In this document: positions 32,516 through 56,662 of the stretch, piece after piece
Numbering within the stretch: position 1 is the first letter of the stretch
How the letters are laid out: every line of letters begins with the position of its first letter
Virus record (IMG/VR): IMGVR_UViG_3300042402_005558
From: an uncultured virus (IMG/VR IMGVR_UViG_3300042402_005558)
Taxonomy: Duplodnaviria > Heunggongvirae > Uroviricota > Caudoviricetes
Strand: one strand, 5' to 3'
DNA: 64,000 nt
The notes under the pieces: model-generated
Told to the model about the DNA's origin: nothing
What the model saw: only the letters and a program-made list of their open reading frames with translations
Database searches by the model: none
Translations under genes and position numbers: made by a program

Positions 32516-32521
32516 AGCTTT

Positions 32522-32628: not shown

Positions 32629-33648
32629 ATGAAATTAAAATTTTTGCCATTTCTGTGTCTTTTTGGAGTTTCTGCCGCCTACGCACAGGTTACGGTATAC
32701 GGTGTAATTGACACAAGCATACAGTCCTACAACAACGGAACCTCTAGTTTTACTAGAGCGGCTGATAGTCAATATAGCACGAGTCGTTTAGGGTTTAGAG
32801 GCACAGAAGACCTCGGAGGAGGGCTAAGTACCTTTTTTCAAATAGAAGGAACGTTGAATCCCTCCACAGGATCAATGGGGTCTACCACTGTAGCTGCTAA
32901 TGAAATTTTCAATAGAGATGCGCATATTGGTATCAAGTCTTCGTTGGGATCAATTAGAATGGGACGAACTGATGTGGCTCTAGTAGGAGAGATGGATATA
33001 TTTGTATCACAATCTGGAAACTTTGGTATGCATCCAACTAACGGTACCAGTGTTGAATTGGGTACTGATCAAAAAAACGTGGTCAGATATGACAGTCCAG
33101 TTTATGGAGGATTTCAACTCATAGTGGGTCATGCTACCAACAACGTAGGAGCAACCACAGATGCCAATGCAGATCAAAATGGAGTGGCTCTAAGATACGA
33201 AGCAGGCAAAGTAAAGGCAGGAATAGGCTATCAGAAAAATCAAGGTGTGGGTGTGGCAGCACGTGAGACCACGACTGCAGGGTTGGCCTATGATTTTTCT
33301 GTGTTATCAGTTGGTACTGCCTATGCAAGAGGTGATAATTCAACTACCGCTGATGTGACTAGTTCGACATGGGTAACCTCAGTAAGGGTACCGTTGCAGC
33401 AACAGTATGCTGCTCATGTCGTATATGCGCACAGCTCAAATGGTTCCAGCACTACTAACAACAAAGGCAACGGTGTTACATTAGCGGTTACCAAAGACCT
33501 AAGTAAACGCACCACACTTTATGGAGCATATAGCAAAGTCTATAATCAATCTAACTCGTCTATGACCATGTTCAATGCAACAAGTGCTCCGGCAACAGCC
33601 GGTTTAGATACCAGTTCATTAGGACTAGGAATCAGCCATCGTTTTTAA
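32629..33648 (+). CDS. Gram-negative (Burkholderiales-type) outer membrane porin
   Basis: Signal peptide, VTVYGVID, SRLGFRGTEDLGGGL, LSKRTTLY and C-terminal GISHRF. Confidence 0.93.
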   Translation: MKLKFLPFLCLFGVSAAYAQVTVYGVIDTSIQSYNNGTSSFTRAADSQYSTSRLGFRGTEDLGGGLSTFFQIEGTLNPSTGSMGSTTVAANEIFNRDAHIGIKSSLGSIRMGRTDVALVGEMDIFVSQSGNFGMHPTNGTSVELGTDQKNVVRYDSPVYGGFQLIVGHATNNVGATTDANADQNGVALRYEAGKVKAGIGYQKNQGVGVAARETTTAGLAYDFSVLSVGTAYARGDNSTTADVTSSTWVTSVRVPLQQQYAAHVVYAHSSNGSSTTNNKGNGVTLAVTKDLSKRTTLYGAYSKVYNQSNSSMTMFNATSAPATAGLDTSSLGLGISHRF

Positions 33649-33651
33649 AAA

Positions 33652-34371
33652 ATGAGGAACGAAGAAGAAATATCTGTTATTAGGTCTAATATAACTGATC
33701 CCTTCTTCGTTCCGAATTTTCTTCTTGAAGACGAAGTATCATATCTAATAAAAATTTTTGAACAATCTCAAGACAATAATTGTTCTTCAATAATTAAAAA
33801 AAATACAGGTCCTGTAACTTTAAATCTTAATAATTTTAATCAAGATCAAGTAGTGACTAATATTATTGATAGGTTAAAATCAATAATAGGAAATTATGTA
33901 ATCACCGCAGCTTTTTTTTATAAAACAGAGTACCCGCATGTTATTCACAATGACGATACATTCGAGTTACCGAATGACGTATACAAAGGTATAACACTAC
34001 CATTGAAATTGTACGGCGAAAATGTAAAAGAATTTCCTCATCTATGCTTTTTTGATCAACTATATTTTCACGGTCCAGCAAAGTTTTTTAAAAACGAAAA
34101 CGATATACCGACCTACTACAATGAACAGATATATGATTATTCAAGAATAGAAAATCTTGCAGCAGCTGAGTTTGATCAAAAACTATATGAAACATATTTC
34201 ACCCATCTAAAGAAACATTGGTTGGATGGGATGAGCATAAAATGTATGATTCCTTGGATTCCTAGAAATGCCATAATATTTGACAGCATTCGACTGCATT
34301 GTGCCAGTGACTTTCGTAGGGTAGGGGTGCATTCAAAATTAGGAATAAGTATTTTTACCAAAAAAACTTAA
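33652..34371 (+). CDS. 2OG-Fe(II)/cupin-like dioxygenase
   Basis: IHND...IFDS.RLHC facial-triad pattern. Confidence 0.6.
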   Translation: MRNEEEISVIRSNITDPFFVPNFLLEDEVSYLIKIFEQSQDNNCSSIIKKNTGPVTLNLNNFNQDQVVTNIIDRLKSIIGNYVITAAFFYKTEYPHVIHNDDTFELPNDVYKGITLPLKLYGENVKEFPHLCFFDQLYFHGPAKFFKNENDIPTYYNEQIYDYSRIENLAAAEFDQKLYETYFTHLKKHWLDGMSIKCMIPWIPRNAIIFDSIRLHCASDFRRVGVHSKLGISIFTKKT

Positions 34372-34441
34372 CTGTTTCTATTTAAAATTGTTTCAATAAA
34401 TAATCGTCAGCTGTAACATAATTTTAAAACTAATAGAAACC

Positions 34442-34969
34442 ATGAACAAAAAAACAAATCTAATTTACCAACCTAAATTAGATTTAAATCTAGAAGAAAT
34501 CAAAGAAATAGTTTTTCTAAATCAGTTTTCATCCGATAAAAATCTGAATGCTTCCCATCATAGATCAGTGTCAGATCATCCTTATCTACAAAAAATACAA
34601 TCTAAGTATCCGTTTTTAAGCAGCATTTATAATATATATACTCTACCAGGAAATCGTAAAATTCCTTTGCACGTTGATGCTCAACGATCAGCGGCGTTGA
34701 ATATACCTATTGAGAACACCGAAGACAGCGTAACAATTTTCTATGAGCATGTTAAAGATCCAATTTTAGAATATGATTCTAAAAACGTTTATAATTTAAT
34801 CAAGTCGGAAGTAACGGAACTTTTTAGATTTACTTTGCTAGAACCTACGTTGATCAATAATTCAATTCCCCACATGGTTATTAACAATAGTTCAAAACCA
34901 AGAATAATTCTTAGTTGGAGTGTCAATAAAGAATTTAAATTTGAAGATGTCCGAGATAAATTTCAATGA
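34442..34969 (+). CDS. 2OG-Fe(II)/cupin-like dioxygenase
   Basis: LHVD..ALNIP...PHMV.N...R; TAAATA at 34397-34402. Confidence 0.7.
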   Translation: MNKKTNLIYQPKLDLNLEEIKEIVFLNQFSSDKNLNASHHRSVSDHPYLQKIQSKYPFLSSIYNIYTLPGNRKIPLHVDAQRSAALNIPIENTEDSVTIFYEHVKDPILEYDSKNVYNLIKSEVTELFRFTLLEPTLINNSIPHMVINNSSKPRIILSWSVNKEFKFEDVRDKFQ

Positions 34970-35496
34970 ATAATTTTTATCATCCGGTTGAATTGCCTTT
35001 TTCTATCGATCTCGATCTTACGGAGTTTGTCGATCAACAGACCAAATGTAATATCAATTTGTTGCCCGAAAAAGTGCACCAATGGCTAGAAAATACGCTT
35101 GATGCCGTGGTATTATGGACAGAGATATTTTATCTACCACCAAATCGATCGTATGATATACACTGCGACGGACACGAAATTGATAATAAATGCAAATTAA
35201 ATTACATTATCAATGGCAATGACAGCGTAATGCATTGGTATAAAGCCGCAGACCATAATAAAATAATATACGCCTACAGCAAATCTAATACTAGATATCT
35301 CAAATTAGAAAAAACCAATGCTGAAGAAATTTGTCAAGCGACTCTGATTAATCTAAATCTTGTAAATGTCGGTGATTTTCATACAGTAGTAAATGGTAAA
35401 AATGATCGATGGTGTATTAGTATTGTTGTCGGAGATAAAATTACCAAAGACAGATTAAACTATAACGAGGTAAAATCTAGATTAAATATAGAATGA
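34966..35496 (+). CDS. 2OG-Fe(II)/cupin-like dioxygenase
   Basis: IHCD..KLNY...FHTV.N...R. Confidence 0.7.
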   Translation: MNNFYHPVELPFSIDLDLTEFVDQQTKCNINLLPEKVHQWLENTLDAVVLWTEIFYLPPNRSYDIHCDGHEIDNKCKLNYIINGNDSVMHWYKAADHNKIIYAYSKSNTRYLKLEKTNAEEICQATLINLNLVNVGDFHTVVNGKNDRWCISIVVGDKITKDRLNYNEVKSRLNIE

Positions 35497-36017
35497 ATAC
35501 CTGTTACGTTGAATTAGATATTAAAATCCATCCACTCAAAGAATCTATTAATTCGGTTAACTTAGATACATTTTTAGAAAATCAAATGACCCAAGTTAGG
35601 GATATTTCTGAACTGAATAATGAACTAGTAGATTTTTTACACAGTTGTAAAATTTCAATAAGGCCAAAGTGGTTATTAATTTATTGGTTTGGTGATAAAG
35701 TAACATTTCCTCATACCGACGGCTTTAGAAATACTGCATTAAACTGGAATTTTACTCCGGGATCTTGGGTCGAGTTCTATGAAAAAATTCCAGGAAATGA
35801 TTATATAAGATCACAGGATACTACAAATATATTTTGGAAAACTTCGTCAGAACCTATAGCAATATGGGATTCTCTCGGTCCAGCACTAATCAATACACAG
35901 ATTCCTCATACAGTCAAAAACATAAATCAAACTGTGCGTAGACTAACATACAGTATTGGATTTGATGAACCTTATTTTTCTGTTAAAGAAAAACTAAAAG
36001 ACTATTTAAAAAAATGA
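35493..36017 (+). CDS. 2OG-Fe(II)/cupin-like dioxygenase (paralogue A)
   Basis: PHTDG..LNWNFTPG...PHTV..R. Confidence 0.7.
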   Translation: MNTCYVELDIKIHPLKESINSVNLDTFLENQMTQVRDISELNNELVDFLHSCKISIRPKWLLIYWFGDKVTFPHTDGFRNTALNWNFTPGSWVEFYEKIPGNDYIRSQDTTNIFWKTSSEPIAIWDSLGPALINTQIPHTVKNINQTVRRLTYSIGFDEPYFSVKEKLKDYLKK

Positions 36018-36571
36018 ATACCTGTTACATCAAGTTAGCATTAGATATATTTCCTTTCAGTCATCCAGTGGATTATCTATTAAACAACGATTGGCCAGAA
36101 AATCGCATGGACAAATTGCATTCTACTGAGTATCTTAATCCAGAATTAATTGAGTGTTTCCAAGAAAACAATGTGAAATTAAGAAATACATTTTTAATGA
36201 TCAATTGGTGGACATTAAGACCTAGGCCTCCACACACAGACGGAAATTGGTTTTCTGACGATGGCGTTGTCGCAAAAAGACAATGTGGAATTAATTGGAA
36301 TTTTACTCCCGGAACCTGGGTGGAATTTTACAGCGAAGAAAATGCCACACCGAAATTTGATCCTAAGGGAAGAATCGATGATGCCACAGTTTGGCCAGAC
36401 GCAAGAACAGTCATTGATAAATGGGACACTCCCGGACCGGTGATTTTTAATCCTCAAATTATCCATAGAGTAAAAAGTTTTCCTCACATCCAAAGACGAG
36501 TGGCCTGTACTCTGAGGTTTGACGAAACTTTTGAATCTCTAGGTGAAAAGCTATCTAAATATATAAAATAA
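36014..36571 (+). CDS. 2OG-Fe(II)/cupin-like dioxygenase (paralogue B)
   Basis: PHTDG..INWNFTPG...IHRV..R. Confidence 0.7.
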   Translation: MNTCYIKLALDIFPFSHPVDYLLNNDWPENRMDKLHSTEYLNPELIECFQENNVKLRNTFLMINWWTLRPRPPHTDGNWFSDDGVVAKRQCGINWNFTPGTWVEFYSEENATPKFDPKGRIDDATVWPDARTVIDKWDTPGPVIFNPQIIHRVKSFPHIQRRVACTLRFDETFESLGEKLSKYIK

Positions 36572-37116
36572 TGTTTACTTCTATACAACTACCTTATACT
36601 AAATTCGTTCCCGATAACACCGCGACCACATATTATATCGCGGCCATTCATTCAGCAAGTCCGTGGATAGAAGAATTTAACTTACAAGATGTGTGTAGAG
36701 GTAGAGACATACGCTGTGTTGTTGGCTGGATTAAGCCCAGACACAGAATGCCTATACATGTAGACATGGGAGATCATGGACCTACTCCATGGGCATTAGA
36801 TTTTACCACAGATGAATTCAAACATGCAGAACTTGAGATATACAAAAATTTAGATAAGTTAAACAGGCCAACCGGAAATTTAGTTGCTCCCCCAAACAAT
36901 TCCTACGGAATACCTATCATTAAACCAGAAAATGCCGAATTAATAGATTCATGGTCATTTACTAAAGGTGCTGTTAAATTTACCCCCGGAACAAACTGGC
37001 ACACTGGGTATAATCCTGATCCAGAAAAATGGATGGCAGTTGTAAGTTTAAGAAGTTTTTTTATCGAAGACTGGTACGCTATAGAGGAAAAATTACAATC
37101 AGTGAGTGTGCTGTAA
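36571..37116 (+). CDS. 2OG-Fe(II)/cupin-like dioxygenase
   Basis: IHVD...WHTGYN...SLR. Confidence 0.65.
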   Translation: MFTSIQLPYTKFVPDNTATTYYIAAIHSASPWIEEFNLQDVCRGRDIRCVVGWIKPRHRMPIHVDMGDHGPTPWALDFTTDEFKHAELEIYKNLDKLNRPTGNLVAPPNNSYGIPIIKPENAELIDSWSFTKGAVKFTPGTNWHTGYNPDPEKWMAVVSLRSFFIEDWYAIEEKLQSVSVL

Positions 37117-37803
37117 ATTAGCGATAATTTTATCTACATTTTCCGCAGTCATGGGAATATTGAGAATTAAATGTATGCTGTCATTCACCCAAGAAATAGT
37201 TCTGTGAGTATGTCTGGTATTAACATAATACGCCCTGCCGTGTTCAATGTTCAACTTTCGATCATCCATTAACCAATCATAGTCATAGGGGCCACAATTG
37301 TTTAAAAATACTATTAATCTAAAAACATCACGAGGCATACTGGGATGATCTCTATGCGGCACAAAATGTCCACCTATATTGCTTTTTACAAGAAAAGTTC
37401 TCCCAAGAGGACTCCATAAATTTAAGAATCCGTGTAAACTATGACAGGCATTATAAACTGCTGTAGGTTGATTAAATTCTAATTCGCTTAGTCTTCTTCC
37501 GGCAGCGTAGCTTGCTTGAGCCAAACTAGGATTTGTTTTATGATCCGACCCTGGAAGATTAGTTAATGTCAAAGACTGTCTATTATTAGGCCTGTCGGTT
37601 CTAGGTAGATAATCTTGCCAATCATTTTCAAAGTGTTTTATTTCTTCCATAAAAGATCGACAATCAATTTTAAATTTTAAAGGTTCAAAACTTCCTAGAT
37701 TTGATAATGTGAGTTCGTTTTTAATGTCTTCTGCAGAAACATTATCGGGAGAATAATTCTGAGATCTTCCGCTAACACCGGGTGGAACTATGATATTAGA
37801 CAT
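37099..37803 (-). CDS. Aspartyl/asparaginyl beta-hydroxylase-like dioxygenase
   Basis: PHRD...YYVNTRHTH...IHLILN. Confidence 0.7.
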   Translation of the reverse strand: MSNIIVPPGVSGRSQNYSPDNVSAEDIKNELTLSNLGSFEPLKFKIDCRSFMEEIKHFENDWQDYLPRTDRPNNRQSLTLTNLPGSDHKTNPSLAQASYAAGRRLSELEFNQPTAVYNACHSLHGFLNLWSPLGRTFLVKSNIGGHFVPHRDHPSMPRDVFRLIVFLNNCGPYDYDWLMDDRKLNIEHGRAYYVNTRHTHRTISWVNDSIHLILNIPMTAENVDKIIANLQHTH

Positions 37804-37804
37804 G

Positions 37805-38383
37805 TTAATTTATTCCGCAGTCTTGTTTTTTTAATTCTTGAAATGCCCATGCTCTTTCTTGGCATTGCCAACAGGTTCCGCATCTTCCTACTTGTTGTTC
37901 GGTACAAGAATGAGTTAATGAAATCAGTTCTTCTAAGCTATTATCAAACAACATAGATAAAATTTTTTCTTTGGTAAAATCCACGAAAGGAAAAATTATT
38001 CTAGGATCAATACTTTCTTTGGCTCTGTTGGGGACACCGGGATAGTTTTTTAAAGCATCTGGTACAGGGTTTAAAGCTATAAAAATTTTATCTATTTGAT
38101 GTTTTTGAAATACTTCTTTCACAGCAGATGCATTTTGTTGGCTATGATGAACATCTGGACTACCTGCCTTAACAGTACCTGGTATGTTAAAATTAAACTT
38201 ACGGTTAAAAAAATCAATTATGGGATCAGCATACAGGTATGCGCCATCTTTCTTTGGAATAGTGAATGGTTGTATTTTAATTCCTTTATTGTGTTTGACC
38301 AACAGATACAAAAGAATAGCACTATCAAGTCCGCCTGACAGCAAAATTCCATAATAATATTTTTGGTCGAATGATAGTTTCAT
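37805..38383 (-). CDS. QueC-like PP-loop ATP pyrophosphatase
   Basis: SGGLDS plus THSC...CGTCWQCQER zinc motif; TAAATA at 38408-38413 (-). Confidence 0.75.
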   Translation of the reverse strand: MKLSFDQKYYYGILLSGGLDSAILLYLLVKHNKGIKIQPFTIPKKDGAYLYADPIIDFFNRKFNFNIPGTVKAGSPDVHHSQQNASAVKEVFQKHQIDKIFIALNPVPDALKNYPGVPNRAKESIDPRIIFPFVDFTKEKILSMLFDNSLEELISLTHSCTEQQVGRCGTCWQCQERAWAFQELKKQDCGIN

Positions 38384-38418
38384 TAAATATACTGCATGTT
38401 TATTCTATATTTAACTAG

Positions 38419-38619
38419 ATGATTGTTGACAAAAAAAATTTTATTTTGGGTATCCTTTTTATTTCTATAGGCCTGTTATTTTTCTACGAATCGTTATTTT
38501 ACATGTCTTCTCTGCAAGATTTTTCGCAGATCCCTCCTGGATTCTTTCCTTCGGGTCTCTCCGCTATCCTGGCAGTTAACGGTTTGATTTTAATTTTTTC
38601 ATCTGTAAAATGGAAATAA
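38419..38619 (+). CDS. tctB: Shortened TctB-like membrane protein
   Basis: Two TM helices with PPGFFP; directly upstream of and overlapping tctA. Confidence 0.6.
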   Translation: MIVDKKNFILGILFISIGLLFFYESLFYMSSLQDFSQIPPGFFPSGLSAILAVNGLILIFSSVKWK

Positions 38620-40106
38620 TACAGCAGGCCCTCATGTATGGCAGTGAAGCATTTTCTTTACAGAATTTGTTGTATTGCTTTGCTGGTGTTTTCTTAGGCA
38701 CATTGGTAGGAGTGTTGCCGGGACTAGGCCCAGCCACATCAATGAGTATCCTGTTGCCAGGTGTTTTAATGATACCAAATCCGGTAACAGCGATAATTTT
38801 TTTAGCAGGAATATATTATGGAACTCAATACGGTGGTTCTATCACGGCAATTTTATTGAAACTGCCAGGAGAAGCATCATCTGTTGTAATAGTAAATGAC
38901 GGGTATGCATTGTCACAAATGGGTAAATCAGGCACAGCACTTTCTATCTCAGCCATTGGCTCATTTGTGGCAGGAACTTTCTCTACCATAGCTATAGCAT
39001 TGTTTGCCGTGCCTGCATCTCAGCTGGCATTCTATTTTGGTCCTGTAGAATATGCATCCTTAATGGGGTTGGGATTGTTATCCGTAATAGTGTTGGGTGG
39101 AGATTCTTTTTTGAAATCTTTTTCAATGGTGATGCTAGGACTGCTGCTATCAACCATAGGATACGATGTGAATTCTGGAATAGAAAGGATGACATTTGGG
39201 ATACCTGCATTAGGTGAAGGTTTGCCTTTTGTAATATTAGCGATGTCTGTTTTTGGTATTGCTGAAGTATTTTATAATTTTATTTGCCAAGAAAAAGAAA
39301 TCATTATAGAAAAATGTTCTGGTTTAAAATTTAAAGACATGTATCCCACGAAGGAAGAAATAGGGATCGCAATTATGCCTATATTAAGAGGTACAGTTAT
39401 TGGATCGGTGTTGGGCATTCTTCCAGGAGCAGGTCCAATTCTGGCTTCTGTGGTAAGTTATGCCTTAGAAAAAAGAATTAGTAAGCATCCAGAAAAATTT
39501 GGAAAAGGAGCAATCGAAGGCATTGCTTCTCCTGAAAGCGCCAACAACGCTTCGGCTCAGACTAGTTTTATTCCTTTGCTAAGTTTCGGAATACCCACTG
39601 GTCCTACCATGGCAATAATTTTAAGCGTTCTTTTACTTTTCGGACTCCAGCCAGGTCCTCAACTGATTTCTTTCAATCCTGGATTGTTTTGGACTCTAAT
39701 TGTTTCTATGTGGATCGGGAATTTCTTCTTAATAATTTTAAATCTTCCGTTGATCAGCTTATGGGTTAGTATTACTAGAATTCCTCAAAGTGTATTAAGT
39801 ATTATAATATTGCTGACGTGTTTAATTGCTGCATATGTAGTAACTCAGAGTTGGCTTATAATGGGATTGTTATTACCCCTTTCAATCGCCGCAGTTGTGT
39901 TGAAATTATTAGATTGTGATCCCTCACCTGTGTTATTAAGTTTTGTTATAGGAAAGATGTTTGAAGAACATCTAAGGCGATCTTTAATTATTAGTAGAGG
40001 AGATTGGTTTATATTTTTAGATAAACCTATATCTATGACATTTATTTTAATAGCTGTCATGATGATAGTTTGGTATTACATTGTCAAGAAGAAAAAGATT
40101 ATATAA
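38610..40106 (+). CDS. tctA: Tripartite tricarboxylate transporter large permease
   Basis: [27 protein letters not shown] and GIP motifs; polytopic membrane protein. Confidence 0.95.
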
Positions 40107-40651
40107 TGAAAACCATAACTTGGAAACCTACTACAAACAAAACATTAGATGATGAATTCGAATATTTGAGAAATATTCAATACAACGATGTATCTCACAA
40201 ACTATGGAAGAACTACAATAGAGAAACACTGTCTCAGGCATCAGCATTTACTATATGCTATAATGATGACGGTATTCCGGAAATGTGTTCTAGCATAGCC
40301 ATTAAAAATTGTTGGCCTAAAGAAACCTATAGAATATTAAATAGATTATGGAAACCTTCCAATAGAATTAACTACCCTAAAATCATGAGTCCTAGTTTTG
40401 CAGAAACAGCCCTCAGTCAAATAAATTGGCTTAAAGAGAACACAGAATGCAGATTGATTTTTATCAGTCGGCAAAGCAATAACTGGGAAGACTGGGTGAT
40501 AAACCAATTCAAATCTGTTTATGATATTCAATTTTGTAAAAATGAATTCAAATATCTTACCTGTAGTAATGAATCTGACGATAGTTGTTGGCAAAAAATA
40601 ATCTATCAAGGAGATAAAAGTATTTTAGAAGAATGGAAAAGATGTCTATAA
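40106..40651 (+). CDS. Hypothetical protein, possibly GNAT-like
   Basis: ATG overlaps the tctA stop codon (TAATG); RILNRLW and FISRQ motifs. Confidence 0.55.
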   Translation: MKTITWKPTTNKTLDDEFEYLRNIQYNDVSHKLWKNYNRETLSQASAFTICYNDDGIPEMCSSIAIKNCWPKETYRILNRLWKPSNRINYPKIMSPSFAETALSQINWLKENTECRLIFISRQSNNWEDWVINQFKSVYDIQFCKNEFKYLTCSNESDDSCWQKIIYQGDKSILEEWKRCL

Positions 40652-41421: not shown

Positions 41422-41422
41422 T

Positions 41423-45086: not shown

Positions 45087-45104
45087 ATTTGACCTTTTGT
45101 GGGT

Positions 45105-46268: not shown

Positions 46269-46275
46269 GGTGGAC

Positions 46276-46326: not shown

Positions 46327-46354
46327 TCAACTGAAGGCATCAAGGAAAATACTA

Positions 46355-47281: not shown

Positions 47282-47283
47282 AT

Positions 47284-47472
47284 ATGAATACTGATTCTTC
47301 AACCATGAAGATTCGACCATGGAAAGAGGGAGTGTTACCACCCCCAGATGCCAAGCGTCCTAGATGTAAAGTCATGTACTGCTACGATGGAAAAACCGGT
47401 GTATTAGATGAGGATGACACAGACTTTGTGGATTGGCTCATTGTTATAGCTTATGAAACAGAGGAAAAATAA
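47284..47472 (+). CDS. Small hypothetical protein
   Basis: Fills the gap; stop codon overlaps the next ATG. Confidence 0.5.
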   Translation: MNTDSSTMKIRPWKEGVLPPPDAKRPRCKVMYCYDGKTGVLDEDDTDFVDWLIVIAYETEEK

Positions 47473-49272: not shown

Positions 49273-49293
49273 TCTATGATTAATTGAGCACTG

Positions 49294-49596
49294 TTATGTT
49301 GTTAACATTTTTGATTCTTTGGATATTCCATTATTTTGATTGTATAAATCAAACTCTTTCTGCATTCCGACCACCGCCGGGTATTGCATATAATCTTCAT
49401 ATAAAGCCTCGCTTTCCCAATCCTGTGTAACTTCTAATGTTAACGGATCTAATTCCAATACGATTCTAGATACTTTGAATGTTTCCTGCGCCTTTATATA
49501 TTCAAATCTTTTTTTAGGAAGTTTGCTGAAATATTCGATGTGCCATGGTATAGACTCATCGACTCTTCTAAAGATGTGTATAACCTGAAAAGACAT
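49294..49596 (-). CDS. Hypothetical protein (possible dimeric alpha-beta barrel)
   Basis: WESEALYEDY motif; SD AAGGGG. Confidence 0.55.
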   Translation of the reverse strand: MSFQVIHIFRRVDESIPWHIEYFSKLPKKRFEYIKAQETFKVSRIVLELDPLTLEVTQDWESEALYEDYMQYPAVVGMQKEFDLYNQNNGISKESKMLTT

Positions 49597-49609
49597 TTTT
49601 TCCCCTTAA

Positions 49610-50797
49610 TTAAAAGTTATTTATTTTTAAATCTAACACCTTAAATGCTCTGGTTTTAAGTTTTCTTAGTCCGTAATTTATATTTGTCGGATCTTGAAAA
49701 AATTTGCTGTTTACATCAATAGTTATGTCTTTTACAACATTGGAAAAAATGTTTCTTGCACAACTTAAATCAGCAATCTCGTACATCCAGTAGTACCAAT
49801 CATTTCTTTGTATATTGGGTTTTTCTGCCTGGAAAATATCATCATTCCATGATTCGGCGTAAAGAACTTTTTTAAAAATTTTATTTTGTGCTTTCATGAT
49901 CCTGTTGCCCCGGGCTGCACTCACTAAACTATTTTTATACAAAAAATTATTAAATTTAGAATCAGCTACCATATGTAAGGCACATTGATATGCCTGCTCC
50001 ATAGGTAAGATCGGTAAATCTGCAGTCCAATAAAAAGGTTCTTTGGTACCTAGGTTAGGATCTACAGCTAACATATCAAATGCATGATCTGCAAAATGTA
50101 AATATATTCCATCAGGTTTTTCTGATAGCACTGGCTTTTCTATTCCGAAAATGTGGGCAGTATTTTCTGGTGTATATCTAGCATCGAATTTATCTATGTT
50201 CGCTGACATAAAAAAAACTGCCGGAGTATAATTAGAATAGAAATAGTTGTTGTGATCTAATTTTTCCTCTATAATGTCTGTGATATTTTTAGACATAAGA
50301 TTTTCTACATAATCGACTATGGTAATTTTGATCTCTGGATTAGATTTTGATATTCTTTTTAAAACAGGCTCAATAGCATAGTCCCATTCACTTAGACTAT
50401 TTCTAGCAGAGGTGTCGTTGACATTAGGCGTGTAAAATTTTTTGTCAGATAAAATTTTAGGCCATTTCACTACTATTTCGTCTAATTTTATTTTGTGTGT
50501 TAAAAAAGTATGTAGTATATTGTAACTGTCCGAACCACCGCTGAAATGCAAAACTAGATGCGAATATCGATCTCTCAGCTGTTCAGCTCGTTGCTTGTAA
50601 AGATTGGGTAGAGGAATTTTTCCTAACAGAGATCTATCAAAATTTTCCCAGATATGATTATGGTAATAAAAATGAATTTGATCTTTTTTATGTATCGAAG
50701 CGTATTGAAAGGCGTCGAATTTTTTTGTAAACCCCTTGTTATCTACAATCCAACATCCGTATTTTGAAAGAAGTTTAGGGTATTTCTGATAATCCAT
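49610..50797 (-). CDS. PP-loop-fold protein
   Basis: RAEQLRDRY...FSGGSDSYN, GIEKP and EPFYW motifs; start moved to MDYQ just after TATAAATA at 50806-50813. Confidence 0.75.
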   Translation of the reverse strand: MDYQKYPKLLSKYGCWIVDNKGFTKKFDAFQYASIHKKDQIHFYYHNHIWENFDRSLLGKIPLPNLYKQRAEQLRDRYSHLVLHFSGGSDSYNILHTFLTHKIKLDEIVVKWPKILSDKKFYTPNVNDTSARNSLSEWDYAIEPVLKRISKSNPEIKITIVDYVENLMSKNITDIIEEKLDHNNYFYSNYTPAVFFMSANIDKFDARYTPENTAHIFGIEKPVLSEKPDGIYLHFADHAFDMLAVDPNLGTKEPFYWTADLPILPMEQAYQCALHMVADSKFNNFLYKNSLVSAARGNRIMKAQNKIFKKVLYAESWNDDIFQAEKPNIQRNDWYYWMYEIADLSCARNIFSNVVKDITIDVNSKFFQDPTNINYGLRKLKTRAFKVLDLKINNF

Positions 50798-50840
50798 GTT
50801 ACAAATATTTATAAGCAATTGCCTGGTCATAAATAAATTC

Positions 50841-51344
50841 ATGCTGTTTACACATATTGAAAAACTAGAAAATTTTTCTGAGTTAACCAAGGATATCAAC
50901 GATATCATTGCCAACATAGGGTTTAAAGATAATCAAATATCATTACAAAATCTCTATGAAGGACAAGATGATTGGTACAATAATACTGGGTCCTTGAAGG
51001 CCTTGAGTGAACAAGATGAAACCAAATATCAAGTGATTAATTCAGTTTTAAAGGGATCATCCATTGAAGGTCTTATACAACGATTTAAAGGTTTCAGAAG
51101 CAGAATTATTTTGATGGATCCAAGAAAATGCTATTCTGTTCATGCTGATCCGTTTAAAAGAATACATATTCCTATTGTAACAAACGATCAGTGCTGGATG
51201 GTTTGGCCGATTGAAAAACAATGTTTTAGATTGCTAGAAGGTAGAATCTATTCGACTGACACTACCAAGTTACATACTTTTTTAAATGGACATGAAACTT
51301 TAGGTAGAATTCATCTGGTAATGTCCGTAAATGAACATCAATGA
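50841..51344 (+). CDS. Aspartyl/asparaginyl beta-hydroxylase-like dioxygenase
   Basis: YSVHAD..RIHIPI.TN...DTT..HTF.N...RIHLV; start moved to the ATG after TAAATA at 50830-50835. Confidence 0.8.
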   Translation: MLFTHIEKLENFSELTKDINDIIANIGFKDNQISLQNLYEGQDDWYNNTGSLKALSEQDETKYQVINSVLKGSSIEGLIQRFKGFRSRIILMDPRKCYSVHADPFKRIHIPIVTNDQCWMVWPIEKQCFRLLEGRIYSTDTTKLHTFLNGHETLGRIHLVMSVNEHQ

Positions 51345-52099
51345 TTGGGTTTAGAATTTTCGAAAAAATTATTTAAATGAGTTTTTTCTAAGAACTCGTC
51401 AGTAAACACCCCGTCAATTCTAAGACTCCAACTCCAGTAATCCGAATCATTAACAGTGCCATGATAATTATGGTTCATGAAATACATTGCTCTATGATCA
51501 GACACGTGTCGTTCGCCGGTGTCTGTGTCGAATAAAAATAACTTTTTAGGATGTTTACCAGTTATCCAAATAAAATTATCTACATATTCATCTAAACCTT
51601 TGTTGTCACGATGTATGATTCCCTCGGATCCAGCAGGTGATATAAAAAATAACACTCTACCATATTCCTTGAAACAATTTTGATCGTCAATCCAATTAAA
51701 CAGAAAATCAAAATTATGTCCGGCGGGAGTTAACGATGTGTAAGAATTTAAACATTTAAATCTAAAATCTGCCGGATAGTTGCTGATGTTTCTAAGGAAA
51801 AGACAAAATCCGTGACCAGCACATCCATGCATCAATGCATACCAATCTAATTGAAAATTGTTTAGTTCGGGAGTTTCCTTCCTCAATTCCTCTTTCAATT
51901 GATGATGAGACATCAATTCAGACTCAGCAAACGAGTAGGAAGGGGGGCTAGCAGGATAAATTGAATCTGCGCTCTTTCCGATAGCATAAGATATTTTATC
52001 ATGCAAATCGTCTAATTTTTTGAGATCCAAAAAAGATTCAAGTCCTACAAATAGTTCATTATTGACAAGTTTAATCACAAGGTATTTATCAGTATTCAT
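51338..52099 (-). CDS. 2OG-Fe(II)/cupin-like dioxygenase
   Basis: GRVLF...IHRD...NYHG...SLRIDG; start uncertain (TAAATA at 52083-52088). Confidence 0.7.
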   Translation of the reverse strand: MNTDKYLVIKLVNNELFVGLESFLDLKKLDDLHDKISYAIGKSADSIYPASPPSYSFAESELMSHHQLKEELRKETPELNNFQLDWYALMHGCAGHGFCLFLRNISNYPADFRFKCLNSYTSLTPAGHNFDFLFNWIDDQNCFKEYGRVLFFISPAGSEGIIHRDNKGLDEYVDNFIWITGKHPKKLFLFDTDTGERHVSDHRAMYFMNHNYHGTVNDSDYWSWSLRIDGVFTDEFLEKTHLNNFFENSKPNH

Positions 52100-52144
52100 T
52101 TTTCTACTTAGAATTTTTGCTAAGTAAATTGCGGAGGAAATCAC

Positions 52145-53455
52145 ATGAGCTTTAATTTAGAATCTTTTTGTCCTGAGGCATGGAGCCAAATTGAAATAGA
52201 TGGACAAGGAGATTACAAGATATGTTGTCTAGCTAACTATGACACAGATTACGGAATGGCCAGAGATATCAACGACAAAGTTCTCAATGTGATGACGCAT
52301 TCTATTGATGAAGCAATGAACAGTGAGACACACAAAAAACATAGAAGAGACATGTCTCGAAATATACAACCTTTGAGGTGTACAAATTGTTATGATGTCG
52401 AATGTGCTAATGGTGCAAGCAAACGTCAACGTGTACTTCAACAGACCGCCGTAGAATTAAAAAATTATATAAATGTTGAAACGGCCAAAGACGTCACACT
52501 GTCGGACGGAACATTATTGAATCCTAAAGTGATAAATTTAGATCTTCGCTTTGGAAATTTGTGTAATCAAAAATGCATCATGTGTAGTCCTTTACACAGC
52601 AATCAGTGGTATGAAGATTGGGTGGCTCTAACTGGTAGCAGCAATTTTGTTCTCAAAAGAAAAGAATTTCCTATATATCAAGACAACAACGGAAAATATC
52701 GGATGGCTGGATACGAGCCTTGGTGGGAATCAGAGAGATGGTGGGAAATGTTTGATAAAATTGCTCCGCAACTCGAGTACATTTATTTCACAGGCGGGGA
52801 GCCGTTATTAGTGCCTCAGATGCAGGAATGTCTAGATAAGTTGATTGAAAGAGGATTATCCAAAAATATACAATTGAGGTATGATACGAATCTCAGCGTC
52901 ATTAACAAAAAAGTTATAGACAAATGGATAAATTTTAAAAATGTATTTTTGTGCATAAGCATAGACGAAACTGAAGAAAGATATGATCTAATTCGTTACA
53001 TGGGAAATTTTGAAACCTTTGAAAAAAATTTAATTTACATTAAAGAACACAACATAGACATTAGTTATCTCAGCACCTGCATAGGAATAGCCAGTATTTA
53101 CAGCGTTCAAAGAGTTTACGAATTTTGTAAAAAACACGGAATCAAACAACAACAATATAGATTTTTAGATGGTCCAGAGTGGTTGAATATAAGGCACTTA
53201 CCCAGATCAGCAAAAGAAGAAATCATAAAAAATTTATTAGATTATTCACATGATCCCCAATACCTCAAGTATGCTAGGATAGAAATAAACATGCTTGAGA
53301 CATATATGGATCATGTTAATTTAGATCATGTAAAAGATTTTGTAACTAAAATGGATATTCTAGATCTAAAAAGAAACACCAAGTGGAAAGAAGTTCTTCC
53401 TGACGTTTTTGAATTACTGAATAAACATTGTTTGGGAATTTTTGAAAAAGGTTGA
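52145..53455 (+). CDS. Radical SAM enzyme with an N-terminal SPASM/Twitch-like Cys cluster
   Basis: CNQKCIMC (CxxxCxxC), FTGGEP; N-terminal C...CC...CTNC; SD GGAGG. Confidence 0.92.
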   Translation: MSFNLESFCPEAWSQIEIDGQGDYKICCLANYDTDYGMARDINDKVLNVMTHSIDEAMNSETHKKHRRDMSRNIQPLRCTNCYDVECANGASKRQRVLQQTAVELKNYINVETAKDVTLSDGTLLNPKVINLDLRFGNLCNQKCIMCSPLHSNQWYEDWVALTGSSNFVLKRKEFPIYQDNNGKYRMAGYEPWWESERWWEMFDKIAPQLEYIYFTGGEPLLVPQMQECLDKLIERGLSKNIQLRYDTNLSVINKKVIDKWINFKNVFLCISIDETEERYDLIRYMGNFETFEKNLIYIKEHNIDISYLSTCIGIASIYSVQRVYEFCKKHGIKQQQYRFLDGPEWLNIRHLPRSAKEEIIKNLLDYSHDPQYLKYARIEINMLETYMDHVNLDHVKDFVTKMDILDLKRNTKWKEVLPDVFELLNKHCLGIFEKG

Positions 53456-54699
53456 TCATGAATGAAATAGATTTATCGGCAACCCCTTCGGGATGCTATA
53501 GAGTTTATAATTGTACTACTCGTCAAAAGATCAATGATTACTTTAATAAAGTAGAAGCACTTTTAGAGGCCACTCGTCTTAGAAAACAAGGCATAAATGC
53601 TCGTGTAGTTTTTATGTATTATTTTGATCTATTTAAAAGTATAGATTACAGGTTGTTGGGAACTACTCCCCTAGAAAATCTCTATAAAGAAAGAGCTCAA
53701 CAACTGCGAGACAAGTATGATTATCTAATTTTACGTTATAGCGGAGGATCCGATAGCCACAATGTGTTAATGACCTTTCTTAAAAACAAGATAAAATTAG
53801 ATGCTATCTATGTGAATTGGCCAGTCTCTGCTATCGGAAAAGGGTTGTACAAGCCTAATAACATAGACTTTTCTCCCCGAAACGAGTTGAGTGAATGGGA
53901 CTTTGTGATCAAGCCTGACTTAGATTGGATCTCCAAAAATTATCCGGAGATAGAAATACATATCGATGATTGGCTATCAGATATAACTAGAGAAAAAAAT
54001 GTTGAAGATGCGATGTTTGAAAAACAAAATCACTATCACAGTCCAACTAGTTTTTATAGGATGCAATGGTTTTCAGATCATGAAAAAAATCTAAGTAACA
54101 AAGGCCTCAAAGTTGGGTTAATCGAGGGAGCAGACAAACCTAATTTGATAGTTCTAGATGATGATCCGAACACAGTGAAAATGCATTTTGTTGATTGGAC
54201 GTTGCAGCACAATGTAACCTACACTGGTAATGGAGGTGAATATTTTTATTGGACTCCTGACATGCCGTTATTGGCTGTAGAAATGGCATATCAGAATTTT
54301 CTGTATTATAAGAATAATCCAGAAGATCGGTGGTTGCTCGAAGAAAAATACAAATATGAAAATCTAGAGGGATACGATCCATTATCTATAGCAAGTTTAA
54401 AATTTAACAAGAAAAGTGATATTTCCAAAAAGGTATTATATCCTTATTGGTCTTTTGATAGATTTCAGGTAGTCAAAGATATTAAGTTTTTAAACGGAAT
54501 ACACAACGGAAAACCACAGGATTGGGTTTTTTGGGAACATCATGAAACCAAATTAGTAAGAGACAAATGGAATCATCACATATATAGTTATTTACGTGGG
54601 ATCGATTCTGAATTTCTACACCACGATTCTGCCGGACTTCCTACAGGGTATAAGCCTATATTTTCTATACCTGTCAAAATAGGAAGCTATACACAATGA
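53452..54699 (+). CDS. PP-loop-fold protein
   Basis: RAQQLRDKYDY...YSGGSDSHN, GADKP and EYFYW motifs. Confidence 0.75.
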   Translation: MIMNEIDLSATPSGCYRVYNCTTRQKINDYFNKVEALLEATRLRKQGINARVVFMYYFDLFKSIDYRLLGTTPLENLYKERAQQLRDKYDYLILRYSGGSDSHNVLMTFLKNKIKLDAIYVNWPVSAIGKGLYKPNNIDFSPRNELSEWDFVIKPDLDWISKNYPEIEIHIDDWLSDITREKNVEDAMFEKQNHYHSPTSFYRMQWFSDHEKNLSNKGLKVGLIEGADKPNLIVLDDDPNTVKMHFVDWTLQHNVTYTGNGGEYFYWTPDMPLLAVEMAYQNFLYYKNNPEDRWLLEEKYKYENLEGYDPLSIASLKFNKKSDISKKVLYPYWSFDRFQVVKDIKFLNGIHNGKPQDWVFWEHHETKLVRDKWNHHIYSYLRGIDSEFLHHDSAGLPTGYKPIFSIPVKIGSYTQ

Positions 54700-54721
54700 A
54701 AAATTTTAAAAGGTATATTTG

Positions 54722-55687
54722 ATGAAAAAAATTTTATTTACTTTGTTTTTAATCTGCAACGGAGTTATCAATGCTCACGCATGGCAGCCGAATCAACCGG
54801 TAAACATCTACATAGGTGCTGGTCCAGGAACCACAGCAGAAATCGCACTAAGGCGAGTCACAGATGACATTACCAAAAGAACCAACGTTTCTTTTAGTTA
54901 CCACTATAAACCAGGTCCGGGACAGGTAGAGGTAACAAACAATTTCATATCTATGCCAAATGATGGACATCATATGTTGATGCCTTTTTTTGGTGATGTA
55001 TTTATTTGGAGCGAAATTGTATTCAAAGATAGAGTTAAATGGAACGCAGATAGTTTTGAATATGTAATTGGATTACCATCTGATCCTGCAGTTATTATCT
55101 CTCCAATTAATAGTCCAGTGAACAATCCCAAAGAGTTAATTCAATATTTAAACTTGAATAATAAAAATTTAAATTTTGGCACAGCCACTGGTACGCAAGC
55201 AATACCGTATTATTCTATCATGCATCACAGTAAAGCCGATAAGTCTAAAGTAAAAGAAATTAGATATAAAGCAGCAAGAGAAGTAATGATGGACGTTGCT
55301 TCCGGAAATTTAGATTTCGGAGTAATACCTGCAGGGCTGATAAAGACCGCAGAATCAACTGGAAAAATTAAAATAATAGGCATCACAGCAAATTCGCCTT
55401 TTGCGACTTCCCCTCAGTATCAAGTTTTTAATAGAGAAATTAAAGATTTGAATTTCTATATCTACAGGCTGATTGTTTTGCCTCCTAAGACAAAACCAGA
55501 AATCGTAGCATGGTTTAATAAAGAAATGCGAGTGGCTCTGGAAAACCCGGTAATATCTAAAAGTTTCGAAGATAATTTTGAAACAATAGAAAAAGAATAC
55601 CTTAGCCCCAACGGAATCAAAAAAGTTATACTAGATGCCAAAAAACTATATCAGCCGTTGGCTGAAAGGACAGTGGTTCAAAAATAG
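54722..55687 (+). CDS. tctC: TctC/Bug family periplasmic substrate-binding protein
   Basis: Signal peptide AHA-WQP, GPG, KPG, DGH, YK...DVASG and LPPKT motifs. Confidence 0.85.
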   Translation: MKKILFTLFLICNGVINAHAWQPNQPVNIYIGAGPGTTAEIALRRVTDDITKRTNVSFSYHYKPGPGQVEVTNNFISMPNDGHHMLMPFFGDVFIWSEIVFKDRVKWNADSFEYVIGLPSDPAVIISPINSPVNNPKELIQYLNLNNKNLNFGTATGTQAIPYYSIMHHSKADKSKVKEIRYKAAREVMMDVASGNLDFGVIPAGLIKTAESTGKIKIIGITANSPFATSPQYQVFNREIKDLNFYIYRLIVLPPKTKPEIVAWFNKEMRVALENPVISKSFEDNFETIEKEYLSPNGIKKVILDAKKLYQPLAERTVVQK

Positions 55688-56662
55688 ATGAATCAACGAT
55701 TTCTATCTAGGCCGTTGAAATTGTTTGATAGCAAATATCCGATAATGCTAGCGGCTATGAATAAAGTTTCAACGATGAATTTCGCTGTTGCATGTAATCG
55801 GGTTGGAATTTTTCCTTCTATATCAGCATATAACTATTATTATGGGAAGGAATTGTTTGATGTTCATCAGTTCGAAAAAGACCTAACAATATTCAATAAC
55901 TTAACCGGAACAAATAATTTAATAGTAAGTGTAGAACTTTTTGACATGTGTAAGCCAGAATTTTTAAATATTTGTTCTAAAAAGTTATTTTCTCATCTAG
56001 AAGTTATAGACGAAACAGGACATATTTACAGGTCTGAAATCGATGACAACAAAGATGTTTTTGAAAAAAATATGTCAAGACTAGAATCTATTTTTTTAGA
56101 TATAGAAAGAGCAGGAATAAAATGTCTATTTAAATGTTTAATACCAGATCATTGGATTAAAAAAACCGATCGCGTTAAAGATTTGTTTTCAGGAGCAATA
56201 ATTAAATCAAGTGATGCGTCAGGAAAAACCATAGTTCACAACGATAGAAAAACACTGATTGAAGAATTTTTACAACTAGAGACTGCATCTCCTGATAAAG
56301 TTTTTGTTCCAACTGGTGGCATACATTCTGGTTCGCAGGTAAAAGAATTTATCAATGCCGGCGCAGAAATCATAGGAATAGGATCATATTTTATCACTGC
56401 TATAGAATGTGAGATATCAACCGATGTCAAAGAAAAAATTATTAGATCAACACGGCATGATTTATCAAGATTTCAAACAGGTCAGAACAGTATTATTTTT
56501 TCTGAAATAGATAAAGATGATATCAATCATAGTCTATCTTTGAAACAAGGAATTAAAAACTCCAATGTTGGTCACATATGTATGGGGTCATCCGTCGATT
56601 TTATCGACAAAATATTACCTCTTCAAGATCTAGTTGACAATCTTATGTCAGAGTTAATTTAG
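55688..56662 (+). CDS. Nitronate monooxygenase-like FMN TIM-barrel enzyme
   Basis: KYPIMLAAM; TGGI.SG....I.AGA..IGIGSYF...EC. Confidence 0.75.
   Translation: MNQRFLSRPLKLFDSKYPIMLAAMNKVSTMNFAVACNRVGIFPSISAYNYYYGKELFDVHQFEKDLTIFNNLTGTNNLIVSVELFDMCKPEFLNICSKKLFSHLEVIDETGHIYRSEIDDNKDVFEKNMSRLESIFLDIERAGIKCLFKCLIPDHWIKKTDRVKDLFSGAIIKSSDASGKTIVHNDRKTLIEEFLQLETASPDKVFVPTGGIHSGSQVKEFINAGAEIIGIGSYFITAIECEISTDVKEKIIRSTRHDLSRFQTGQNSIIFSEIDKDDINHSLSLKQGIKNSNVGHICMGSSVDFIDKILPLQDLVDNLMSELI

Follow-up and report, generated by a model that had tools for sequence, protein, structure and literature searches.

What does a phage do with a dense block of genes for oxygenases, PP-loop ATP pyrophosphatase-like enzymes, membrane enzymes of the lipid type and organic-acid uptake proteins? 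The question is raised by an island at positions 32629-56662 of the IMG/VR record IMGVR_UViG_3300042402_005558, a stretch of 64,000 nucleotides from an uncultured member of the Caudoviricetes, which is called the window here. A reading of its letters without database searches (the sequence-only reading) had interpreted the island as a phage-borne chemical-modification pathway fed by uptake. The island is real: a hypervariable accessory block under selection, at a fixed site that has a tRNA-like gene on one side and a tail-fibre gene on the other. Its cassettes belong to a repertoire that recurs, mostly in viral contigs. Two families of this repertoire, a large PP-loop ligase (PPL) and an exported TctC-like binding protein, adjoin each other far more often than in shuffled gene orders.

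Independent contigs span both junctions, so a chimeric host contig, the possibility that the sequence-only reading had raised against itself, is not supported. The viral record G001 spans the left junction and is 100% identical to the window in the part compared (30000-39188). Another viral contig, L003/L004, from a close relative, contains the whole island with both junctions at 88-97% nucleotide identity; the sole piece missing from it is 35521-36013, one copy of a tandem gene array. Three DNA runs that are not flagged as a possible source (X7, X10, and X15) have contigs on all 30 bins of 40001-60000, bridging position 56662, and depth in X7 is even over the right junction. Of the sampled words of 48001-58000, 83% or more are present in 19 DNA runs, 17 labelled lake water and two labelled crustacean metagenome, with six of the 19 flagged as a possible source. 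A mis-assembled piece of a host chromosome would account for the GC content, which is below that of the flanks, and for the host-like porin, TctA, and TctC. The junctions speak against it, and so do the proteins: TctA is at most 53% identical to that of any bacterial species representative, and PPL, present in viral records, has no match in 401 sampled Pseudomonadota genomes, in a search whose positive control matched three of three viral records. The probability of mis-assembly is close to nil, and the island is not a chimera.

The island has 30 open reading frames (ORFs) on both strands, in agreement with the earlier count of about 30. Twenty-nine are at least 100 aa long and the 30th is the 66-aa ORF 38419-38619. 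Nearly all overlap or are less than 90 bp apart, and together they form about nine cassettes in alternating orientation. The GC content is 0.350, against 0.428 in the left flank and 0.422 in the right flank, which bears out the AT-richness first noticed by eye. As also stated earlier, there is no sign of an integrase or transposase: no such family was matched in the Pfam, PHROGs, and NCBIfam scans.

The two borders proposed by the sequence-only reading were both recovered. On the right is the tail-fibre gene, and its homologues (38-47% identity) flank shorter islands in L052, L054, and L008. On the left is a 111-nt tRNA-like element, which ARAGORN reports, as an intron-containing Pro(ggg), only when its threshold is lowered (-ps); neither default ARAGORN nor Rfam calls it, and the sole Rfam match at 32100-32700 is a sub-threshold sRNA. 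Whole-region RNA folds at this border gave z-scores of -1.4 and -0.4. The element is fully conserved (100% identity) in L004, where the DNA around it averages 88% identity. Its identity is 91.9% in L070/L071, and in L052/L054 the 34-35 nt at its 3' end match without a difference. The element marks the island edge in all of these phages. No att-like repeat of it was seen at the right border, where the longest match spans 11 nt (E 1.2).

Differently sized versions of the island occupy the same site in related phages, as expected of the hypervariable locus with a constant family repertoire that the sequence-only reading had suggested looking for. In L052, only ~10.4 kb separate the fibre homologue from the tRNA-like element, with the same families inside. 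In L070/L071, the porin gene follows the same tRNA-like element and the homologue of ORF 31602, and ~12.7 kb of the window are missing. The porin (90-91%), oxygenase 47472 (96%), and the enolase-superfamily enzyme (85-86%) are nevertheless more similar to the window there than are the neighbouring backbone genes (35-81%). The island is mostly 95-99% identical to its counterpart in L003/L004, as compared with 67-73% for the left backbone and 89% for the tail fibre. Steps in identity against L003/L004 are seen at ~31100-31600 and 56650-58700, which suggests recombination breakpoints at the island edges. In 60 of 71 loci, the module genes have a GC content below that of the rest. The size variants, the high identity of the island relative to the backbone, and the lower GC of the module indicate exchange of cassettes between phages at a fixed site. 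Judged from sequence divergence, the island is under purifying selection: dN/dS is 0.03-0.41 for the 29 island genes that differ from their counterparts in a close relative, including degenerate PP-loop paralogues and unassigned ORFs.

The PPL family is represented by three paralogues in the island and has a wide viral distribution. Its profile recovered 1,423 representatives (50% identity) at E <=1e-10 among 1.84 billion, and a PPL relative is encoded in 424 of 445 candidate IMG/VR stretches. Searches of 50,697 GenBank phage records with PPL and TctC (tblastn) gave no match. Since it was found in none of the sampled bacterial genomes, PPL is not a borrowed host housekeeping gene. Gene neighbourhoods were compared in 76 other viral loci (L006-L081), each covering +/-10 kb around a PPL gene and selected for that gene. 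TctC-like genes are present in 54 of them, desaturases in 41, small PP-loop enzymes (PPs) in 39, and the 100-aa family p100 in 27. Found in fewer loci are the oxygenase families, both types of radical S-adenosylmethionine (SAM) enzymes, DUF2061 (8 loci), the hydroxylase (6 loci), P450, Rieske protein, CMD, AhpC, rubrerythrin, and DctP (TRAP binding protein). The last six and a 492-aa radical SAM enzyme are neighbours of the module elsewhere and are absent from the window. A fixed gene string (PPL, p100, c16, p100, P450, c24) also occurs in these loci.

Among the 65 TctC genes, 44 directly adjoin a PPL gene (mean 7.7 and maximum 17 in 1000 shuffles); in all but one of these pairs, both genes share a strand. 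A desaturase is found no more than two genes away from 33 of the 54 PPs genes (shuffled mean 12.2, maximum 22). The sequence-only reading would have been contradicted by gene families that do not co-occur in other phages; in other viral contigs they adjoin far above shuffled gene orders. This coupling bears on a simpler explanation, in which the island is a plastic region of unrelated auxiliary genes for uptake (porin and Tct), membrane fluidity (desaturase), and redox housekeeping (oxygenases), with no shared product. Alternating cassettes, and gene content and order that differ between phages, are consistent with it, and lower GC of the module genes is expected of exchangeable accessory DNA. 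Precedents include mixed islands in the fibre region of T4-like marine phages (available text of PMC7029224) and a stand-alone cyanophage desaturase with proven Delta9 activity (available text of PMC5776448). The TctC-PPL and PPs-desaturase pairs are, however, too constant for such a region, and it does not account for a PPL family seen in no sampled bacterial genome. A collection of unrelated genes is considered rather unlikely.

What PPL may do is suggested by a predicted structure. PPL proteins are 387-435 aa long, start with M-I-M-N.. or M-I-K-K.., and have ~60-100 unrelated N-terminal residues. They have neither an Ntn glutaminase domain nor Cys as the first residue. S97, G98, G99, D101, and S102 are invariant in alignment A1, and the SGGxDS motif is kept in 57 of 60 PPL rows and 40 of 50 PPs rows. 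Two proteins, PPL-3 (53452) and oxygenase 36014, were modelled by AF2. In Foldseek, the top matches of the PPL-3 model were mostly PP-loop enzymes (LarE, GMP synthase, TilS, and NAD synthetase; best E 4.1e-3). In VIA, its Z-scores against PP-loop enzymes range from 7.5 to 9.7, with AsnB (1ct9) at Z 9.7 and rmsd 6.3 over 289 residues, human ASNS (9b6c) at 9.5, and beta-lactam synthetase (1jgt) at 8.6; TsnB9 and carbapenam synthetase are also among the matches. The predicted fold of PPL matches the synthetase half of asparagine synthetase. The folds assumed by the sequence-only reading were found in both models, PP-loop/AsnB-type for the large PP-loop protein and 2-oxoglutarate (2OG)/Fe(II) oxygenase for the small HxD protein. 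PPL-2 is 75% identical in L070/L071. The 5' end of its ORF overlaps the opposite-strand ORF 50796-51344, and its true start is probably downstream of 50917.

All seven PP-loop ORFs counted by the sequence-only reading were recovered: three PPL, three PPs of ~310 aa, and one short QueC-like protein. The SGGxDS motif is present in five and degenerate in two PPs paralogues, 42732 and 43655. These two are 37% identical to each other (E 5.5e-56), are the sole bearers of their variants among 50 members, and are under constraint (dN/dS 0.088 and 0.072). PPs is homologous to PPL according to profile comparison (hhalign 96.9% over 245 columns). Against the Protein Data Bank (PDB), the PPs profile matched NH3-dependent NAD synthetase (1.3e-5), MnmA, QueC, and TtuA.

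Such matches raise the alternative that nucleic acids are the target of the PP-loop enzymes, as they are for QueC, TilS, MnmA, and TtuA, in connection with the tRNA-like gene at the left edge and QueD at 22768-23337. QueC-like matches are seen in 37805, 41848, and 43655, and the PPL-3 model aligns with TilS/MesJ at Z 8.4. For 37805, Pfam QueC scores 39.9 bits (cut-off 22) in the C-terminal part only, and Asn_synthase 20 bits (cut-off 21). The QueC model of NCBIfam (TIGR00364), by contrast, gave 29.9 bits (37805) and 23.2 bits, far under the equivalog cut-off of 150.3. The alignment with TilS/MesJ covers only 170 residues against 289 with AsnB-type synthetases. No FolE, QueE, or TGT/DpdA was named in the Pfam, PHROGs, and NCBIfam scans of the window ORFs, but only QueD, and the constant partners of the PP-loop genes are periplasmic binding proteins and membrane oxygenases. 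Nucleic-acid modification is very improbable.

The uptake genes of the island include a porin and a full-length TctA, both of which score above their Pfam cut-offs as the sequence-only reading would predict. The TctB and two TctC called by that reading fared unevenly. TctC 54719 is above the cut-off, and 46355, which is divergently placed to PPL-1, is slightly below it and is assigned because it clusters with clear TctC proteins; TctB is half-size and below the cut-off. The TctB-like ORF, upstream of TctA and 100% identical in L004, covers positions 2-49 of the 137-position PF07331 model (cut-off 29.1 bits). A signal-peptide-like N-terminus is present in 61 of 64 distinct TctC-like proteins, as compared to one of 97 PPL proteins. 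The porin scores 62 bits against the NCBIfam PorB-like model, far under its cut-off. Its homologues are present in only two of the 76 other loci, and tblastn against GenBank phage records gave one weak fragment. TctA has one weak match (29%) in the 76 loci and seven (<=35.5%) in GenBank phage-labelled records, mostly short unannotated fragments. Its best bacterial relatives are 49-53% identical and come from mixed taxa, with many Betaproteobacteria; deducing a host or donor from TctA was dropped for this reason. The window is the only examined locus with porin, TctA, and TctB beside TctC-ligase pairs. Because a full import route is present in this phage, an uptake role for TctC is supported, and because TctA and porin are so rare in the other loci, the complete route is special to this phage lineage.

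The putative tailoring genes include many 2OG/Fe(II)-oxygenase-like genes. HxD is present in the ten ORFs to which the sequence-only reading had given this assignment. With hhalign, eight fall firmly into one superfamily (92-100%), 36571 is a probable member (82%), and 33652 is not linked. The latter has a probability below 2% to cupin families and a dN/dS of 0.069 against a relative. H74, D76, and H151 are invariant in 27 aligned sequences including four window paralogues. R162, 11 residues after H151, is nearly so and may be the basic residue that binds the 2OG C5 carboxylate, expected ~10 positions past the distal His. The AF2 model of 36014 has a pLDDT of 90.8; nearly all of its 50 VIA rows are 2OG oxygenases (Z up to 8.4), and FIH is the best Foldseek match (1.5e-3). 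No oxygenase-like ORF reaches a Pfam cut-off (50796 comes closest, and the rest score <=14.2 bits or have no match), and the oxygenase profile gave nothing significant against PDB sequences. The tandem copy 35493-36017 has no orthologue in the close relative L004 (blastn gap 35521-36013), and the copy number of the array thus varies.

Among the structural matches of 36014 are the protein hydroxylases FIH, MINA53, PHD2, P4H, and AspH. Together with the adjoining tail-fibre gene and the location within the fibre region, they would suit modification of proteins: oxygenases would hydroxylate, and AsnB-like ligases would amidate or cross-link, fibres, virion proteins, or host surface proteins, altering host range or blocking superinfection. 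The small-molecule enzymes EvdO2, proline 3-hydroxylase, AsqJ, and KanJ are, however, equally among the matches. Protein modification leaves the exported TctC, TctA, porin, membrane desaturase, and hydroxylase without a role, and no gene resembling a precursor peptide was seen, with ORFs below 60 aa surveyed in two gaps only. One candidate for such a gene would be p100, but it is conserved over its full length. This alternative is unlikely.

The desaturase and the hydroxylase are of the lipid type. Both of them, the enolase-superfamily enzyme, and DUF2061, all named by the sequence-only reading, are above their Pfam cut-offs. DUF2061 often stands beside a large PP-loop gene. The 181-aa protein 40106 is close to viral GNAT clusters (0.94, the nearest named ones), and one of nine family members matches Pfam GNAT (E 0.017); the 40070-family profile gave nothing significant against PDB. 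Its family (clusters 98 and 40) is located between desaturase and small PP-loop genes in other loci. The enolase-superfamily enzyme 48226 scores best in NCBIfam with L-Ala-D/L-Glu epimerase (98.9 bits, under its cut-off), and no equivalog cut-off was reached. Its best PDB matches are 2p88 and 1jpm, with KxK, the metal ligands D, E, and D, and the second Lys aligned. As far as can be told from these similarities, 48226 is nearest to dipeptide or N-acyl-amino-acid epimerases, which fits amide-linked products.

For p100, the best PDB matches of the profile are an ABM monooxygenase (E 0.093) and IsdI (0.39), neither significant. A cluster for ribosomally synthesized and post-translationally modified peptides (RiPPs) or lasso peptides was considered and rejected: p100 shows no leader/core pattern, and the Pfam and NCBIfam scans of the window ORFs contain no protease or RiPP recognition element families for an AsnB-like cyclase. 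The radical SAM enzyme with an extra Cys cluster proved to be an N-terminal-twitch member of NF033640 and not a classical C-terminal SPASM maturase. The protein read earlier as an FMN (flavin mononucleotide) monooxygenase, 55688, is NMO/FabK-like but falls just below the Pfam cut-off; it has 33.9 bits to NCBIfam FabK (cut-off 453) and matches nitronate monooxygenase in PDB (E 1.7e-4). A 62-aa ORF without a Pfam match (47284-47472, +) fills the gap between TctC 46355 and oxygenase 47472.

Table 1. Genes and border elements of the island, ordered by position in the window.
Feature	Position	Strand	Basis
tRNA-like element, 111 nt (left border)	32405-32515	-	7-bp acceptor stem, T arm, encoded CCA, over-long middle
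Outer-membrane porin	32629-33648	+	Signal peptide, C-terminal Phe; Pfam Porin_4 141.5 bits (cut-off 27)
Putative oxygenase, 239 aa	33652-34371	+	HND motif; no Pfam match at E up to 10
Five tandem small 2OG/Fe(II)-oxygenase-like genes (34442, 34966, 35493, 36014, 36571)	34442-37116	+	Motif, fold, hhalign
2OG/Fe(II)-oxygenase-like, AspH-like branch	37099-37803	-	hhalign 100% to 51338 family, 99.5% to 50796 family
Short QueC-like PP-loop protein	37805-38383	-	SGGLDS and C-terminal Cys cluster; PHROG 1550
Half-size TctB-like membrane protein, 66 aa	38419-38619	+	PF07331 E 4.8e-4, 20.7 bits
TctA permease	38610-40106	+	PF01970 446 bits, positions 1-423 of 423
181-aa protein heading the desaturase sub-module	40106-40651	+	Atlas record starts at residue 13 of the 40070 ORF
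Membrane fatty-acid desaturase	40633-41421	+	Pfam FA_desaturase 40.3 bits (cut-off 29.7); HRLFCH, HRGYHH, HNNHH
Fatty-acid-hydroxylase-superfamily membrane enzyme	41423-41851	+	Pfam FA_hydroxylase 55.9 bits (cut-off 31)
PPs, small PP-loop enzyme	41848-42792	+	SGGIDS
Two PPs paralogues with degenerate PP-loops	42732-44653	-	STGLDS (42732), SGGLDG (43655)
DUF2061 membrane protein	44646-45086	-	Pfam 94 bits (cut-off 23.1), two repeats
PPL-1, large PP-loop ligase	45105-46268	-	SGGADS; paralogue of 49610 and 53452; in alignment A1
Exported TctC-like binding protein 1	46355-47281	+	Pfam TctC 24.2 bits (cut-off 27); signal peptide
2OG/Fe(II)-oxygenase-like	47472-48245	+	hhalign 99.8% to 50796 family; weak Pfam 2OG-FeII_Oxy_3, Asp_Arg_Hydrox
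Enolase-superfamily enzyme, MLE subgroup	48226-49272	-	Pfam MR_MLE_N and MR_MLE_C above cut-offs
p100, 100 aa	49294-49596	-	Recurrent family
PPL-2, large PP-loop ligase	49610-50917	-	SGGSDS; paralogue of 45105 and 53452; in alignment A1
2OG/Fe(II)-oxygenase-like	50796-51344	+	Pfam Asp_Arg_Hydrox 21.2 bits (cut-off 22.6); hhalign 99.3-99.8%
2OG/Fe(II)-oxygenase-like	51338-52144	-	hhalign links 99.3-99.8%
Radical SAM enzyme, N-terminal twitch/SPASM-like Cys domain	52145-53455	+	NF033640 N_Twi_rSAM 298.3 bits (cut-off 170), positions 2-397 of 398; Pfam Radical_SAM 53.3 bits; SPASM 21.7 bits on residues 9-83; CNQKCIMC
PPL-3, large PP-loop ligase, structure predicted	53452-54699	+	AF2 pLDDT 86.5
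Exported TctC-like binding protein 2	54719-55687	+	Pfam TctC 65.9 bits (cut-off 27); signal peptide; directly downstream of PPL-3
NMO/FabK-like FMN TIM-barrel protein, weak assignment	55688-56662	+	Pfam NMO 27.6 bits (cut-off 28)
Tail-fibre gene (right border)	56654-58702	-	Pfam Mtd_N 42.7 bits (cut-off 26.3) and PHROG tail fibre

Our preferred answer is that the island captures organic acids, forms amides from them with ATP, tailors the products oxidatively, and includes a lipid-directed sub-module, all in an exchangeable island. This reading has about an even chance of being right. The intact genes, their folds, the export signals, the recurrence of the families, and their adjacency are observed; from them we infer an order of steps, amide formation, and links between sub-modules and cassettes, as follows. 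The phage porin would admit organic acids to the periplasm, where the two exported TctC-type proteins would bind them. Either the phage TctA with the half-size TctB or a host permease would bring the acids in. The three cytoplasmic PPL enzymes, shaped like an AsnB synthetase that lacks the glutaminase, would activate a carboxyl group by adenylation and transfer it to ammonia or an amine, yielding an amide. The product could then be modified by the 2OG/Fe(II) oxygenases, the radical SAM enzyme of the twitch type, p100 with its possible ABM-like fold, and the MLE-type epimerase. In the membrane, an acyl or lipid moiety may be the substrate of the possible GNAT, the desaturase, the hydroxylase, and the small PP-loop enzyme. 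That the imported acid is citrate or 2-oxoglutarate is a guess.

Several points weigh against this reading. The cassettes lie in alternating directions and recur separately, and they need not form one pathway; the folds and the co-occurrence favour chemical modification fed by uptake, as the sequence-only reading had it, but not a single pathway. TctA is present in only one and porin in only two of the 76 loci, so most phages rely on host permeases, or TctC acts otherwise. The co-occurrence is conditional on PPL, since the loci were chosen for carrying it, and only the within-locus shuffle controls for that. PPL has no Pfam model or sequence-level relative of solved structure: the three proteins did not match Pfam Asn_synthase (PF00733) at E up to 10, and the PPL profile gave nothing significant against PDB sequences. 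The structural matches of PPL and of the oxygenase are middling, with Z <=9.7 and no Foldseek match at E <=1e-3. The degenerate PP-loops of two PPs paralogues and the truncated, low-scoring TctB are further such points. The GNAT-like nature of 40106 and the ABM-like nature of p100 may serve as leads rather than as results. Contigs of the RNA-library run X20 lie on 19 of the 30 bins, including 46624-47184 in TctC 46355; DNA carry-over is possible, these contigs are no proof of transcription, and bins without cover are uninformative.

Regulatory signals and defence systems were also searched for. The T4 late-promoter motif TATAAATA is not enriched in the window, with four matches observed versus 5.8 expected. 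Two of the four, at 46276-46283 (-) and 46319-46326 (+), point towards each other within the 86 bp that separate the divergent genes PPL 45105 and TctC 46355. Scans for sigma-70 promoters and terminators were close to chance. PADLOC found no defence system, its matches being generic QueC, 2OG, and viperin-like domains only.

A wider form of the preferred reading is put forward tentatively and with less confidence: a virus-only chemical capture by large aquatic phages, in which diversifying pairs of exported TctC and glutaminase-less AsnB-like ligases, helped in this phage by its porin and permease, seize particular organic acids from outside the cell during infection and turn them into amide-linked compounds, possibly amino-acid lipids or envelope decorations, which are tailored by oxygenases, with the cassettes traded at a tRNA-like hotspot beside fibre genes. 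Phages are known to boost uptake with the phosphate-binding protein PstS. If the capture reading is true, phages would go beyond boosting uptake and would import and chemically convert specific organic acids. This type of virus-driven metabolism would be new for lakes and seas, and it would supply new amide-forming and hydroxylating enzymes. PPL has at least 1,423 representatives and no cultured-phage member, yet it is selected and coupled to exported binding proteins. The window is the most complete case seen, and its porin, TctA, TctB, and TctC-ligase pairs make the uptake hypothesis directly testable.

The carrier of the island is an uncultured lake-water T4-like jumbo myophage. Its flanks are T4-like, with PhoH, clamp loader, MazG, a piece of DNA polymerase, baseplate wedge proteins, fibres (one of 2479 aa), and ThyX. 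A GroES-like protein, UvdE, QueD, a 2OG oxygenase, and tRNAs in a cluster are also encoded there. When clamp loaders are compared, PA5oct-type Pseudomonas jumbo phages (51.6%) and Atu_ph07 (43.5%) are the closest phages in culture. Related contigs of 35-86 kb are rated 10-23% complete by CheckV, from which a genome of ~350 kb is estimated. Megablast of 20000-44000 against GenBank phages gave no match. In the left flank, outside the AT-rich island, 19876-23337 (-) is a second accessory block with UvdE, a glycosyltransferase, a DAHP/KDO8P-synthase-family enzyme (235.7 bits), and QueD/PTPS. To the right of the fibre gene, 58842-59447 and 59933-60472 (-) encode a metallophosphoesterase and a DSP/PTP-like phosphatase, two families (clusters 'Mphos' and 'PTP') that also recur in the neighbourhood of the module elsewhere. 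A sixth tRNA at 60958-61028 (-), with 51.1 bits in Rfam and missed by ARAGORN, adjoins the five-tRNA cluster 61033-63768.

The island as a whole resembles the hypervariable 'host recognition cluster' and plastic regions of pelagimyophages and cyanomyophages, a large non-syntenic island among fibre genes with mixed enzymes including radical SAM cassettes (available text of PMC7029224). The site in the fibre region and the mixture of enzymes are shared with these T4-like marine phages, and so is a gradual divergence, one cassette at a time. PMC7029224 puts the stress on glycosyltransferases, and its main text lacks the terms oxygenase, tricarboxylate, porin, and PP-loop. This phage is also unlike those marine phages in its affinity, by clamp loader, to PA5oct-type jumbo phages.

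The desaturase has counterparts in the cyanophage vFAD Delta9 lipid desaturases, which are likewise phage membrane desaturases with three His boxes (available text of PMC5776448). Unlike vFAD, it stands here within a recurrent set with the small PP-loop enzyme, the hydroxylase, and possibly a GNAT-like protein. In ornithine and aminolipid synthesis, OlsB is an N-acyltransferase, OlsC a hydroxylase of the LpxO/AspH type, and OlsD and OlsE are members of the fatty-acid-hydroxylase family. The same superfamilies lie side by side in the island (a possible GNAT, FA_hydroxylase, and AspH-like oxygenases), with the desaturase in addition. Unlike in aminolipid synthesis, no sequence match to any Ols protein was found in NCBIfam, and PP-loop enzymes are not known to take part in aminolipid pathways.

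For PPL, the closest known systems are the AsnB synthetase domain and its relatives (1ct9, 9b6c, 1jgt, 1q15, and TsnB9 7ylz), which share the SGGxDS motif and the fold over 273-296 residues (Z 8.1-9.7). By analogy, PPL may have AsnB-type chemistry, that is, adenylation of a carboxylate followed by attack of a nitrogen nucleophile. PPL differs from AsnB in that it has no glutaminase domain, N-terminal Cys, or Asn_synthase match, and in that its constant neighbour is an exported TctC. No description of a PPL-TctC module was found in the literature searched.

The uptake genes are comparable to the tripartite tricarboxylate transporters and the orphan TctC or 'Bug' binding proteins of Betaproteobacteria, among which there are likewise a full-length TctA, a TctC with a signal peptide, and a TctB-like gene upstream of TctA. 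In Bordetella, binding-protein genes are far more numerous than permease genes. As for viruses, tctA is mentioned once for SUP05 phage contigs, as a viral hit by domain only, in the available text of PMC4164917, and appears as a table abbreviation in that of PMC6359870. The system described here differs from the bacterial ones in that it is encoded by a phage, its TctB is half-size, and its TctC is paired with a cytoplasmic ligase instead of a regulator or permease.

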